Shown here piece by piece: positions 1,739 to 25,749 of a stretch of 64,000 nt of DNA (its first letter is position 1; each line of letters opens with the position of its first letter). Under the pieces are notes generated by a model. That model was not told the DNA's origin, did no database searches, and was given only the letters and a program-made list of their open reading frames with translations. The position numbers and the translations under genes were made by a program. Origin of the DNA: Minisyncoccia bacterium (GTDB lineage: Bacteria > Patescibacteriota > Minisyncoccia > Phycocordibacterales > CAIZLB01); assembly GCA_041752275.1 (NCBI GenBank), contig JBGSHK010000008.1:70543-134542 (forward strand), written 5' to 3'.

Positions 1739-3460
1739 ATGCAACAAGACATAATCAAATCAACAAAATTTATAATTTATTCACGTAAATCATCAGAGGA
1801 CTCATCTGATAAACAAGCACTGTCGATTCAGTCTCAAATCAATGAAAATAACAGACTTATTAAAAGGTATAATATCCCACAATCAAGTGTTGAATACATG
1901 CAAGAATCTAAGTCTGCTAAAAAGTCAGGTACAAGACCTATATTCAATAGTTTGGTCCAGAAAATAGAGAGTGGAAAGATCGACGGAATAATAGTCTGGC
2001 ATCCTGATAGACTATCAAGAAACGCAGGTGATGTTGGCAGGCTAATAGACCTCATGGATGACGGTAAACTAAAGTGCATAGTCACACATCAACAAACATA
2101 CTTAAACAGACCATCTGACAAAGCATTCTTTGGAATGATATGCACCCAAGCAAAGATGGAAAACGATAACAAAAGTGAAAATGTAAAAAGGGGATACAAA
2201 AGAAAATGCGAACTAGGATATTTGCCTACATCAGCCAAGGTTGGATACAAAAATGACTTCGGTGAAAAGGGCTATTGTAAAATGCTCGATGACCCCGAGA
2301 GATTGCCTCTTGTTCAAAAAGCCTTGAAGATGTTTCTAACAGGAAACTATTCTATAAACAGCATGTATGAAGTATGTAGGGATCAGTTAAAGATAGTAAC
2401 AGTTCAGAAAAGAAGATTGGGAGGTAGACCACTATCAAGATCGGCGGTCCATAACATGTTAAGGGATTCATTCTATGCGGGATTTTTCTATCACAAAGAC
2501 GAGTTCGGAGAAAGTATCAGATATGAGACAAACAAATCCCTGACCAGAATAATCACTGAAGCTGAACATTACAAGATACAAGCATTACTTGGAAACAGGG
2601 GTAAGCCAAAACCAAAGACATATGTAAAACAATTTCCATACAAGAGGTTTAGTAAAACACCTGACAACATACCTTTCACCGCAGAACCAAAGTTTCAAGT
2701 TATATGTCCAACATGTAAATACAAATTTGCATATCAAAACAAAACTCATTGTCCAAAATGTAATCTGAAAGTATTGGAGATGATAAATGCAAAGTATCTA
2801 GACTATGTGTACTATCACCCAATAAAAAGAGATACAGGCGGTCCAAAGAATGTCTGTATCACAGAAAAAGAGATCACCGAGCAAGTTCTGAAGCATTTTG
2901 ACAGTAGCTGGATAGCACACCCAGTTTTCACAGAATGGATCGTAGAAAAACTTAAAGAATCAGAGTCAGAAGAAAAACAACTACAAACAACCATCAAAGA
3001 TACAGTAAACAACCAAGTTGAAGACCTTAAGCTCAAACTAGACAAATTGACCGACATGAAGCTCCGAGACATGATAGATGATGACGAATTCTTGGCAAAA
3101 AAAGACGCTTTAAAGGCACAAATAAAGTCAGTCGAGCAAAGTAACGAGTATGGAGAAAAAACGCAATCTGAAGCCAAAATTGACCTCTACAGAGCCTTCT
3201 CGGTAACCCAGGACATAGAGAGTATATTGAAGAAAGGAGACTATGACGAGGTGGTGGAGCTACTCTCAATATTTGGTTCGAACCTAAAGATAAATGGAAA
3301 AGTAGTCAATGTTTACAACGATATTTTGATACAGAAAATCGAAAAGGCATTCTCTGAAATTAAACAGAAGAATGCCTTGTTCGAACCTAAAAATCTTCAG
3401 GATTTATCGGACTCAAATCCAGTTTTCGTGGATGTCCGTCCTGACTTGCTCCTCCGGTAG
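1739..3460 (+). CDS. Large serine recombinase (resolvase/invertase-type N-domain, recombinase domain, zinc ribbon, coiled coil).
   Basis: N-terminal YSRKSSEDSSDKQALSIQSQ and GIIVWHPDRLSR motifs. Cys4 ribbon CPTCKYKF...HCPKCN. C-terminal coiled-coil region. The last 12 nt including the stop lie within the tRNA-Asn 3' end. Confidence 0.85.
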   Translation: MQQDIIKSTKFIIYSRKSSEDSSDKQALSIQSQINENNRLIKRYNIPQSSVEYMQESKSAKKSGTRPIFNSLVQKIESGKIDGIIVWHPDRLSRNAGDVGRLIDLMDDGKLKCIVTHQQTYLNRPSDKAFFGMICTQAKMENDNKSENVKRGYKRKCELGYLPTSAKVGYKNDFGEKGYCKMLDDPERLPLVQKALKMFLTGNYSINSMYEVCRDQLKIVTVQKRRLGGRPLSRSAVHNMLRDSFYAGFFYHKDEFGESIRYETNKSLTRIITEAEHYKIQALLGNRGKPKPKTYVKQFPYKRFSKTPDNIPFTAEPKFQVICPTCKYKFAYQNKTHCPKCNLKVLEMINAKYLDYVYYHPIKRDTGGPKNVCITEKEITEQVLKHFDSSWIAHPVFTEWIVEKLKESESEEKQLQTTIKDTVNNQVEDLKLKLDKLTDMKLRDMIDDDEFLAKKDALKAQIKSVEQSNEYGEKTQSEAKIDLYRAFSVTQDIESILKKGDYDEVVELLSIFGSNLKINGKVVNVYNDILIQKIEKAFSEIKQKNALFEPKNLQDLSDSNPVFVDVRPDLLLR

Positions 3461-19303: not shown

Positions 19304-19879
19304 TTATTTAGTATTCATATACTCCCTTATACCTGGAAATACTTGTATTTTATCAAACGGATATAGACGTAATAAAACTCTACCTTCTATAGCTTCTTTT
19401 GTTACAGGACCCCAATAACGAGAATCAAAACTAGCAAATCTGTTATCACCCATGACAAAATATTCATCTTTCTTTAGATTTATTAAAGGTGAAGTTTTTG
19501 GACTTTTGTAATAAATAAAATTCTCAGGTATTAATTCATTATTAATAAAAGTATTATCATCTTTAACTTCTATTTTTTCACCTGGTTTTGAAATAATTCT
19601 TTTTATAAATCTATTTGTATTTTCAGCTTCTGCTGGAGGGTTGAAAACTACAACGTCACCTTTTTCTGGGTTTTTGAATCTATAAGATATTTTGTCCACT
19701 ATAACATAGTCACCGTTTTTGAAAGTATTATCCATAGATGAGCCTGAAACCGTATGAGGTTCAAGAATAAATACTCTAAAAATAACAATAAAAACCAGTA
19801 TTATAAAGAAACTTGTCCAAGACATGTCTCCACTCTTATTTTTAGGTTTTGAAATGTTTATATTGTCTATTTCACTCAT
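19304..19879 (-). CDS. lepB: Signal peptidase I.
   Basis: SGSSMDNTF (Ser box) and GDNRFASFDSRYWG (GDNR box). Confidence 0.85.
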   Translation of the reverse strand: MSEIDNINISKPKNKSGDMSWTSFFIILVFIVIFRVFILEPHTVSGSSMDNTFKNGDYVIVDKISYRFKNPEKGDVVVFNPPAEAENTNRFIKRIISKPGEKIEVKDDNTFINNELIPENFIYYKSPKTSPLINLKKDEYFVMGDNRFASFDSRYWGPVTKEAIEGRVLLRLYPFDKIQVFPGIREYMNTK

Positions 19880-22583: not shown

Positions 22584-22976
22584 ATGGATCAGATTTTATC
22601 CCTAATCGAGAAATACTACTATATGAAAGATGGTGAGTTTATAGAAAATCATCAGAGCTTTTTTGTGGTGCATGATGATGAGATAGATATAAGGTTAAAA
22701 TATAAGACTATAAAGCATATAGTGGAAAAGAGGAAGAAGGATGGATATAGTATTGGGGAATTAGATAATTTGATTAAGAAAGTGATTAAATTACTTGAAT
22801 CTTATGAATATAATTTTGTTCAAGATATAAAAAATAATAGCTATTTGTTGATTGAAAAAGGATATAAACTTAAAGCCTTGATTGTTGTTGTGGATATAAA
22901 CCTTGAGGACGAATCAATATGTATTAAAACAGCTTTTATCAAGTCTGCTACAAAAACAGATAAGTATATAAAGTAA
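22584..22976 (+). CDS. Hypothetical protein.
   Basis: 130-aa ORF with coding-like composition and no motif. Confidence 0.35.
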   Translation: MDQILSLIEKYYYMKDGEFIENHQSFFVVHDDEIDIRLKYKTIKHIVEKRKKDGYSIGELDNLIKKVIKLLESYEYNFVQDIKNNSYLLIEKGYKLKALIVVVDINLEDESICIKTAFIKSATKTDKYIK

Positions 22977-24149: not shown

Positions 24150-24638
24150 CTATTTTTGAATGATTGGATTGCGGCAAGGATCATTGAGATCCAAGATTTG
24201 TCCAATTGTTGGCTCTACATTGGCAAGCCGTTTTTTCTCTCCGGGAGTAGCACGCTCACCTAAGGATCTCACTAATGCACGCTTCAAGGGATCCAGGATA
24301 TTACGAGCGAACTCGTAGTGGGCTAGGGTTTGATATTTGCCGTAGCTCGATTCTATTTGACCCACCTTACACTCAGGGAATGTAATTCCCCAAACTGCAT
24401 TCATGGCACCCCAAGCCCCATCGTAATGGGCGTAACCCCAACTTGGAATTATATAAGAGTCTTCATTTTCGGTCCAGCTTTGGAACCTTGTGTTACCACA
24501 ATGTGAATCAAGCTGGAGATATCCATCCCGAACACCAACAGTGTCCCTGAAGATAGTGTTGTCGTTCTCTTCACACTTCGCGTGTGGGAGGAGTTTTGGA
24601 ATAGTAAACTCTACACTGTACCTGATCACTGCTTTCAT
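24150..24638 (-). CDS. Hypothetical Trp-rich protein.
   Basis: 162-aa ORF, SWGYAHYDGAWGAMNAVWGITFPEC. No known motif. Confidence 0.35.
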   Translation of the reverse strand: MKAVIRYSVEFTIPKLLPHAKCEENDNTIFRDTVGVRDGYLQLDSHCGNTRFQSWTENEDSYIIPSWGYAHYDGAWGAMNAVWGITFPECKVGQIESSYGKYQTLAHYEFARNILDPLKRALVRSLGERATPGEKKRLANVEPTIGQILDLNDPCRNPIIQK

Positions 24639-25368
24639 ATTTTGATTTAGTTTCGATTTTTGGATAATCGGAAAGATTTCTGCCTTTCGGCGAAGCTGAT
24701 TTTTTGTCCCCTTTCCAGTTAAGACTCAGCTTTAATGATACATAGTAAATATATATCTATAAAGCTAGGTCTAACGTTCGACTTACCTATATCGGTGTTA
24801 ATGACCTACTTTTATATTATATCATATTGAATGAAAAAGTCAAAAAACACCCAGAAACCACATCAACATGGCAGGGGATAAAACCCTTTAATATCAAGCT
24901 ATTTCACCCATTTTGTAGACATTTTTACATATCCATGACCTAGTATGCTCACATTTGACACACCGTGATTATAATGACATAACTTGCATTTTATCTCAGT
25001 ATGTGCTACAATGACATTGCCACTGTAAGAGTGGTTTTCAATTTGTGCAACCTATACATTATCTCAGACGGCCTCAGTTTTCAGGATTATAGTCTTACAT
25101 AATCAATCTGGTTTTGGCCCTTCAGATGCGGGTAGATAAAGTAATAGAGATTACAAGTTAAGAAACGCTTATTTTACAAATTACAACAATAGCCTTTGTA
25201 TCTTTAGTATCAGCTGGTTTTATTAACACAACTGATATTGATACAAATGCTACTCAAAATAGTATTATTTCTACAAGTACGGAAATAGTAAGTACTTCAA
25301 CAATTAAGACAAAAACTAACTCTGGTTTAGAATCAAAAGTAAAAGTTTATTTCTCTGATACACCAATC

Positions 25369-25641
25369 ATGCAAAAAATTGCATATTGTGAGTCAAGAAA
25401 CAGACAATTTGAAAAAGATGGTTCTTCACTTAGAGGCGTTGTTAACTCTCGTGACGTTGGAATCTTTCAAGTGAATGAAAAATATCACTTAGCTGATTCT
25501 AAAAAAATGGGTATTGATATACACACAGTTGATGGAAACATGAAGTACGCCAGACACTTATATGAGAGTCAAGGTACTAGACCATGGAATTCATCACGTC
25601 CTTGTTGGGGTAAGTATCAAAATCTTGCTTTAAACAAATAA
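25369..25641 (+). CDS. Rpf-like / lysozyme-like transglycosylase domain protein. The probable true N-terminus lies further upstream from a non-ATG start (see findings).
   Basis: IAYCESRNRQF...DVGIFQVNEKYH...YARHLYESQGTRPW...C matches the Rpf transglycosylase-like and C-type lysozyme catalytic blocks. The upstream in-frame 25162-25368 encodes a hydrophobic signal-like segment plus a Thr/Ser linker. Confidence 0.55.
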   Translation: MQKIAYCESRNRQFEKDGSSLRGVVNSRDVGIFQVNEKYHLADSKKMGIDIHTVDGNMKYARHLYESQGTRPWNSSRPCWGKYQNLALNK

Positions 25642-25719
25642 TATAACAAAAAGCGTCACTATCTTAAGGTGAGGCTTTTTGTTTTGATTTTTTTTGAATA
25701 TAAAAATAGCCGTTACCTT

Positions 25720-25749
25720 AAAATGGGGTAACGGTTTTATGTGTATATA
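25720..25749. terminator. Bidirectional terminator.
   Basis: CCGTTACC / GGTAACGG 8-bp stem followed by TTTT. Confidence 0.5.

Follow-up and report, generated by a model that had tools for sequence, protein, structure and literature searches.

A lysozyme-like gene of a Minisyncoccia bacterium with a probable AUU start codon and a conserved structured leader

Here, we describe a small gene for a lysozyme-like protein in a 64,000-nucleotide stretch of DNA (hereafter, the window) from a Minisyncoccia bacterium (assembly GCA_041752275.1, contig JBGSHK010000008.1). We consider it probable that positions 24984-25745 of the window form a single-gene unit consisting of a promoter, a folded leader RNA, an AUU start codon and an exported lysozyme-like enzyme. 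The best reading of the sequence is that translation is initiated at AUU 25171, decoded as the initiator methionine, and that the product is most likely a small exported peptidoglycan-cleaving enzyme of Parcubacteria, members of the candidate phyla radiation (CPR). AUU start codons and structured leaders are known kinds of feature. What is new is the family-wide, deeply conserved use of AUH codons (AUU, AUA or AUC) in a presumably exported muralytic enzyme of CPR bacteria, and a leader motif that is absent from Rfam 15 and is paired with such a start in an apparently Shine-Dalgarno (SD)-free genome.

The proposed start codon and coding sequence

In the list of open reading frames (ORFs) of the window, the gene begins at ATG 25369 and encodes 90 aa (25369-25641, plus strand). 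A preliminary description of this DNA had observed that the frame is open much further upstream, and our analysis agrees: it extends back to 25162, directly 3' of a TAA at 25159-25161, and the earliest in-frame ATG, GTG or TTG from there is codon 69, which is ATG 25369 itself. Translation from 25162 yields ETLILQITTIAFVSLVSAGFINTT (also given as ETLILQITTIAFVSLVSAGFINTTDIDTNATQ), followed by a Thr/Ser-rich linker and then the domain. We estimate from base composition that 69 open codons would occur by chance with a probability of ~0.004 (~0.4%) at 31% GC, and the same open frame was found again in 68 independent loci. The window has 90 stop-to-stop frames that are 90 codons or longer; barring those opposite long ORFs, this one alone has such a long start-less N-terminal stretch, according to a by-eye comparison of their coordinates with the long-ORF list.

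The relatives whose DNA was read are 80 of at least 536 found by a genome scan; reading covered 84 loci plus five from a metagenome scan, and the start-codon counts refer to 82 distinct loci. At the start of the hydrophobic segment that opens the protein, the codon is ATT in 56 loci, ATA in 6, ATC in 6 and ATG in 14. The frame typically opens 0-3 codons 5' of a conserved x-L-I-L-Q/N motif. An AUH codon stands at this position with no in-frame ATG, GTG or TTG between it and the upstream stop in 52 of the 68 non-ATG loci. That stop lies at most 3 codons before the AUH codon in 32 loci and, in five, immediately before CTT-ATT or CTT-ATC. The codon preceding ATT varies (CTT, CGT, TGT, AGT, TAT, TTT, GTT or ACT) and the Ile codon alone is constant. 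The relatives with an ATG start begin exactly at the aligned codon (IMLN, NMIN, YMIE, HMIE, YMLE and xMPF, giving proteins such as MIEL.., MLNL.. and MPF..). On a neighbor-joining tree of the domain, which is rough and indicative only, AUH is the parsimony root state, with ~7 switches to or from AUG and ATG-start members in several places. A non-canonical start codon was among the explanations first offered for the missing ATG, and the conservation of ATT 25171 across the family bears it out.

Two short elements precede the AUH codon. Of the 68 non-ATG loci, 59 have a RAUUA(C) box at about -22 to -24, as found with a search pattern that missed the D2-type 'CAUUAC' loci, and 63 have a UAA at about -12 to -15 (searched from -18 to -9). 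Hardly any of the 14 ATG-start loci have either element. Since the UAA does not keep a constant frame relative to the AUH codon, we take it to be an RNA motif rather than a stop codon. Two other roles for this region were considered and rejected by eye. An AUU-NNN-NNN-UAA mini-ORF at the box has no conserved frame, as the AUU-to-UAA spacing is 9 nt in some clades and 8 nt in others, and the UAA region is a poor candidate for the -10 box of an internal promoter that would give a leaderless AUU mRNA: TATAAT occurs in few loci and the key positions are not conserved.

Public calls of close homologues (P0001-P0031) are shorter than the 156 aa proposed here. They have either 141-147 aa, with a start within the hydrophobic segment (MSLVSAGF.., MVSAGF..), where an internal ATG, GTG or TTG is the start of many of the calls, or 89-90 aa (P0027 and P0031 included), comprising the domain alone. 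Such calls suggest a start problem common to the whole family. The public annotations of the family are most likely truncated at the N-terminus, losing the export segment because translation most likely starts at the non-standard AUU.

Other ways of beginning the protein have to be weighed against AUU 25171. One of the codons adjoining it, CUU 25168 or UUA 25174, could serve instead, and GCUU-AUU-UUA is indeed conserved as nucleotides beyond what coding requires; the triplet before ATT varies, however, with a stop directly before it in some loci, and the ATH position alone is replaced by ATG in relatives, which leaves this choice improbable. We regard as very unlikely that translation begins at ATG 25369 and makes the 90-aa domain only, with 25162-25368 an untranslated RNA that is open by chance. 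This is the sole canonical start, and some public calls (P0027 and P0031 again) have the corresponding length, but in 68 loci from AT-rich genomes the frame stays free of stops and the protein sequence of the hydrophobic segment and linker is conserved. Furthermore, the Met of 'PIM' at this site is Leu in many relatives (PIL, AIL, HIL), and a wall-cleaving enzyme needs export.

We give practically no credence to the remaining two. One is a start at ATG 25126, with the in-frame TAA 25159 read through or recoded. It would fit the window, where the frame reads MRVDKVIEITS*ETLILQ.., but ATG 25126 is ACG in the relative L001 and AAG in L004, the frame is interrupted by a 1-nt indel, these nucleotides form the 3' side of a covarying helix (P3, below) and the distance from UAA to AUH varies among loci (12-14 nt) and is not consistently in frame. 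Because this ATG is not conserved and the indel intervenes, the sequence upstream of the stop is not coding. An undetected frameshift or sequencing error had also been suggested in the preliminary description, and it fails on the recurrence of the start-less arrangement in independent metagenome-assembled genomes and metagenomes, which excludes sequencing error. A canonical start lost in assembly, a frameshift or a pseudogene has the missing start in its favor and nothing further, and it sits badly with invariant catalytic residues and a confident domain model.

The leader RNA and the promoters

The preliminary description saw the 500 bp upstream of the gene as a non-coding stretch without a recognizable RNA. 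It is right that the ORFs in 24639-25160 have only 31-38 aa and that no Rfam family matches this interval even at E<=10; in the whole window, Rfam matches at the gathering score are limited to two tRNAs. Read for regulatory signals, however, the interval is not featureless, holding two divergent predicted sigma-70 promoters and a conserved structured leader. The coordinates of these and other features are collected in the table.

From the transcription start site predicted at ~25019 to the AUU, 152 nt are more conserved than the coding sequence and are predicted to fold into five helices, P1 to P5. An unusual leader had been proposed as one solution to the missing start, and this leader is of that kind. 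RNAalifold, applied to 15 leaders aligned with MAFFT, gave 33 pairs, 20 of them with compensatory changes. In 21 distinct sequences of the window-type clade, where the conserved covarying structure in the 5' untranslated region (UTR) was found, 97.7% of cells are paired (38-55% when the partners are slid by 1-3 columns) and double (compensatory) changes occur in 21 of the 33 pairs, values that 0 of 500 shuffles reach. The 21-sequence alignment was made to the covariance model, so its counts lean toward the model structure; the 15-sequence MAFFT alignment, which is unfitted, agrees.

On the window sequence, the consensus fold has an energy of -24 kcal/mol, and the optimum with this fold enforced (-32.4 kcal/mol) equals the unconstrained minimum (-32.1 kcal/mol). 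The enforced fold extends P2 to ~25036-25047:25152-25165 and leaves 25166-25191, including the AUU, single-stranded. As a covarying helix, the extension (25036-25042 with 25157-25165) was rejected: 86.6% of cells are compatible, with zero compensatory changes. The loops of P1 and P5 are perfectly complementary over 6 nt (duplex -7.5 kcal/mol), and the five loop pairs counted (GUAAG with CUUAC) never vary in the 21 sequences, so that a P1-P5 kissing contact is plausible. A weaker alternative pairing joins the P1 loop to GCUUAU at the start region (-3.4 kcal/mol). In the window, the pre-start box is the 3' strand of P2.

The leader (25019-25170) matches none of the 4227 families of Rfam 15, even at E<=10. 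The covariance model finds it once in the window and, in relatives, solely upstream of the lysozyme-like gene. A metagenome scan for P1 plus a GUGCA signature returned 10 matches, of which five are true, all 5' of the lysozyme-like gene, and five are chance matches.

Outside the window-type clade the leader core changes. The window-type model R1 scores 123-198 bits within its clade and no more than 36 bits in the gene's other clades, where the folds differ, and hence one aptamer core is not kept wherever a leader occurs. Common to the leaders of other clades are a strong promoter, a 5' hairpin with a U-run, the RAUUA(C) box, the UAA and (G)CUU-AUH-UUA, and in three clades the box lies directly 3' of the 3' strand of a covarying helix. 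CsrA-like GGA motifs 5' of the box, which we considered as another shared element, are present in some clades only (by eye).

All 82 loci, including those with an ATG start, have a covarying-stem hairpin a few nucleotides after the predicted transcription start site, followed by a U-run and scored as terminator-like (25019-25045 in the window). We rejected P1 and its U-run as a regulated attenuator, as they are too near the transcription start site for an upstream antiterminator. The terminator scan of the leader flags this 5' hairpin and U-run only, and the leader holds no terminator or SD-sequestering alternative.

All 15 window-type leaders retain the promoter predicted for the lysozyme-like gene. 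A TTGACA-like and TAnnnT pair with 16-18 nt spacing is present in nearly every locus, mostly 44-190 nt 5' of the start, under a search pattern lax enough that a few hexamers are dubious. The predicted leaders are mostly short in ATG-start members (44-80 nt, one of 106 nt) and mostly 70-190 nt long in AUH-start members. The divergent promoter, whose -35 element (AAAGTCAA on the plus strand) is kept in L001 and L004, implies a 5'UTR of ~170 nt for the minus-strand gene at 24150-24638. That gene encodes 162 aa and has no Pfam or NCBIfam match, and L001 and L004 lack it at this position. In L001, a leaderless 33-aa ORF may have gone uncalled directly after the divergent promoter (~2505-2612, minus strand); it would encode a putative membrane peptide, MNEKQLSKAWIIMTVVIAILCILAMIFPLSPPQ, as judged by eye. 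Between the two promoters are also a promoter-like CTCACA-16-TATAAT sequence (24948-24975) and a small hairpin, AGGGG...CCCUU.

Downstream of the gene, a terminator-like hairpin with a T-run indicates that the transcription unit is monocistronic. At 25643-25749, Rfam gives weak matches to Thr_leader and to miRNA families on both strands; these are apparently due to terminator-like hairpins and not to true family members.

Table. Positions of features of the lysozyme-like gene and its upstream region in the window
Feature	Position	Strand	Remarks
Predicted divergent promoter of gene 24150-24638	24816-24843	-	TTGACT-16-TATAAT, TG-extended; 11/12 consensus matches
Inter-promoter region	24844-24983		~140 nt conserved among window, L001 and L004 although the upstream neighboring gene differs
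Predicted sigma-70-type promoter of lysozyme-like gene	24984-25012	+	-35 TTGCAT 24984-24989, 17-nt spacer, TG-extended -10 TACAAT 25007-25012
Structured 5' leader RNA (predicted)	25019-25170	+	152 nt, five helices; RNAalifold and covariation
P1	25019-25024:25030-25035	+	Loop GUAAG, then U-run
P1 loop GUAAGA	25025-25030	+	Candidate kissing partner of P5 loop UCUUAC (25093-25098), by complementarity
P2	25043-25047:25152-25156	+	UUGUG:UACAA, invariant
P3	25052-25064:25134-25147	+	12/13 pairs covary
P4	25070-25073:25116-25119	+	GGCC:GGCC
P5	25086-25090:25099-25103	+	Loop AGUCUUAC
Pre-start box	25150-25161	+	AUUAC 25150-25154 and UAA 25159-25161; conserved across AUH loci; UAA closes the frame upstream
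Proposed start codon ATT (AUU)	25171-25173	+	Family-wide alignment of the codon
Revised coding sequence (proposed)	25171-25641	+	156 aa and stop
N-terminal hydrophobic segment, M(I)LQITTIAFVSLVSAGF	25171-25224	+	Conserved as protein across clades; model pLDDT (predicted local distance difference test) <50
Thr/Ser/Asn-rich low-complexity linker	25225-25311	+	Variable in length and sequence; disordered in model
Lysozyme-like catalytic domain	25312-25638	+	Putative catalytic Glu in C-E-S motif, GAG 25390-25392
Terminator-like hairpin and T-run	25708-25745	+	Terminator scan

The lysozyme-like product and its probable export

The hydrophobic segment is a putative signal peptide or membrane anchor. 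Its sequence, ITTIAFVSLVSAGF, has small residues (V-S-A|G) after the h-region, as read from the translation alone. A signal peptidase I gene at 19304-19879 on the minus strand (PF10502, E=7e-45) indicates that Sec-type cleavage of signal peptides is available in the organism.

The structure model of the catalytic domain is confident and confirms a lysozyme fold. Invariant in the family are C-E-S...D-x-G...Q, namely E77, D98, G100 and Q103, and the C76...C148 pair; E77 and D98 are presumably catalytic. These observations uphold the muralytic-like domain recognized in the preliminary description. Neither of the two assignments considered there was recovered by profile search: PF06737 (Rpf) is absent from the Pfam matches even at E<=1, and the closest structural neighbors are not Rpf domains, while the C-type lysozyme family PF00062 (GH22) reaches 13.2 bits, below its cut-off of 27, in a match of just 22 residues (E=0.11). 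No family of Pfam, NCBIfam or PHROGs is above threshold for the protein.

The family nevertheless resembles several known ones. With Rpf it shares the superfamily and, presumably, the character of a small secreted muralytic domain that carries a catalytic Glu. As in GH22, a Glu and an Asp are found in a lysozyme fold (E77 and D98, invariant and putatively catalytic), but the present family is bacterial and has two Cys instead of eight. As in family 1 lytic transglycosylases, a lysozyme-like fold occurs with a Glu-Ser motif that ends the catalytic helix. In profile comparisons, SLT_3 (PF18896) scores 14 bits where 27 are required, IagB of NCBIfam gives E=0.059 and the family profile gives E=0.01 against the EtgA sequence. 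PF18896 is carried by one distant member, P0100. Unlike transglycosylases of the EtgA/IagB/IpgF type, the protein has no Pfam SLT model above threshold, the family is distinguished by a conserved Cys pair and its own C-terminal helix, and the neighboring genes are def, fmt, priA and that for L27, with no adjoining secretion system. A 130-aa ORF elsewhere in the window (22584-22976, plus strand), also found in L002, matches PBECR3, a phage-type barnase/EndoU/RelE-like nuclease, only weakly (E=0.16).

Possible regulation of the gene and its significance

An SD-like tetramer is found upstream of 2 of the 48 long ORFs in the window, and a match of 5/6 or better to TATAAT ends 4-11 nt before the ATG in 24 of the 48 (mode 6 nt). 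The host genome thus looks nearly SD-free and rich in leaderless mRNAs, and in such a genome a leadered, SD-less, AUU-initiated gene is doubly atypical.

We propose the following explanation. A strong sigma-70 promoter would fire at ~25019, and the first 152 nt of the transcript would fold into the five-helix leader. The AUU start would lie ~15 nt past the P2 core, or ~5 nt if the P2 extension forms, and the 156-aa product would comprise an export or anchor segment, the Thr/Ser linker and the catalytic domain. As a near-cognate codon, AUU would be a poor start against which initiation factor 3 (IF3) discriminates. Together, a strong promoter, a poor start and a structured SD-less leader could hold a potentially self-lytic enzyme at a low level, and synthesis may depend on the state of the initiation machinery or on the fold of the leader, by analogy with infC. 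On this analogy, the gene looks translationally throttled or regulated.

Conserved AUU starts are found in the bacterial genes infC and pcnB; that of infC, which encodes IF3, is the classic case and serves IF3 autoregulation. The lysozyme-like gene resembles these two in that a near-cognate AUU has been kept by selection across an orthologous family, which would imply weak, IF3-sensitive initiation. It is unlike them in that its product is unrelated to translation, with no obvious autoregulatory loop, and in having a long structured leader and no SD site, in a host seemingly dominated by leaderless mRNAs. infC is not among the ten neighboring ORFs. In Escherichia coli, non-canonical starts have 0.01-2% of the efficiency of AUG (bioRxiv 10.1101/063800), and mRNAs with an AUU start compete poorly, their use depending on context, temperature, nutrients, ppGpp and IF3 (PMC5499595). 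Literature searches yielded nothing specific on AUU starts or riboswitches in Patescibacteria or Parcubacteria.

Several points weigh against this explanation. In-frame canonical codons do occur upstream in 16 of the 68 non-ATG loci, at scattered, non-conserved positions inside the leader. The hydrophobic segment is without the basic n-region of a classical Sec signal, with no Lys or Arg between the proposed Met and the h-region; relatives that start with ATG (MIELTTG.., MPFALGL..) are missing it too. Folded as a single sequence, the leader is no more stable than its shuffles (z = -0.6), and P2 and the loop-loop contact are invariant, so that covariation cannot test either. Leader cores differ among clades, so that one mechanism conserved throughout is not established. 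Throttling and a role for IF3 are ideas drawn solely from analogy with E. coli, and the positions of the transcription start site and start codon, like export and enzymatic activity, are inferred.

Tentatively, the leader may be a true sensor, i.e. a riboswitch or a protein- or temperature-responsive element whose fold decides access to the AUU, an idea that refines the proposed explanation and does not exclude it. A multi-helix junction, invariant loop and junction nucleotides, strong covariation, the linkage of the leader to the lysozyme-like gene alone and the lack of an SD site to occlude all argue for it. Possibly, the P5 loop (UCUUAC) and the start region (GCUUAU) compete for the P1 loop (GUAAGA), the former complementary over 6 invariant nucleotides and the latter pairing more weakly (energies above). 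The sensor idea is weakened by the change of core between clades of the same gene family and by a loop contact beyond the covariation test, and neither a ligand nor an obvious expression platform was identified; complementarity between the P1 loop and the start region, also considered as a general feature, was not seen consistently in other clades (by eye). The leader is like Rfam cis-regulatory leaders and riboswitches in its 5'UTR site, multi-helix junction, covariation, conserved loops and single associated gene, and unlike Rfam riboswitches in that no Rfam match, ligand or expression platform was found and that the core changes between clades.

Also tentatively, the leader could be an RNA device that licenses AUU initiation without SD contact, in a host that otherwise appears to use largely leaderless AUG mRNAs. 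The RAUUAC...UAA box and the P2-P5 domain would then position or release the ribosome at the AUU, perhaps assisted by the P1/P5 kissing loops, with a metabolite, a protein or initiation-factor status as the signal. If this were true, candidate-phyla bacteria would have a class of translational control that is new and peculiar to them, exerted over a cell-wall-cutting enzyme that may matter for division or host attachment.

The probable start at AUU 25171 has consequences beyond this gene. Every public call that we examined in this abundant Parcubacteria family appears to be truncated at the N-terminus, which gives the proteins a cytoplasmic appearance, and analyses of the CPR secretome and of host interaction would overlook a whole class of exported enzymes that act on the wall. 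To our knowledge, a family-wide AUU/AUH start maintained over deep divergence is rare, infC being the textbook case. An AUH start in an apparently SD-free, largely leaderless lineage would offer a natural handle on how ribosomes of this kind choose their start sites. The 152-nt leader is a well-supported structured RNA and a candidate new cis-regulatory motif for cell-wall remodeling in ultrasmall bacteria.

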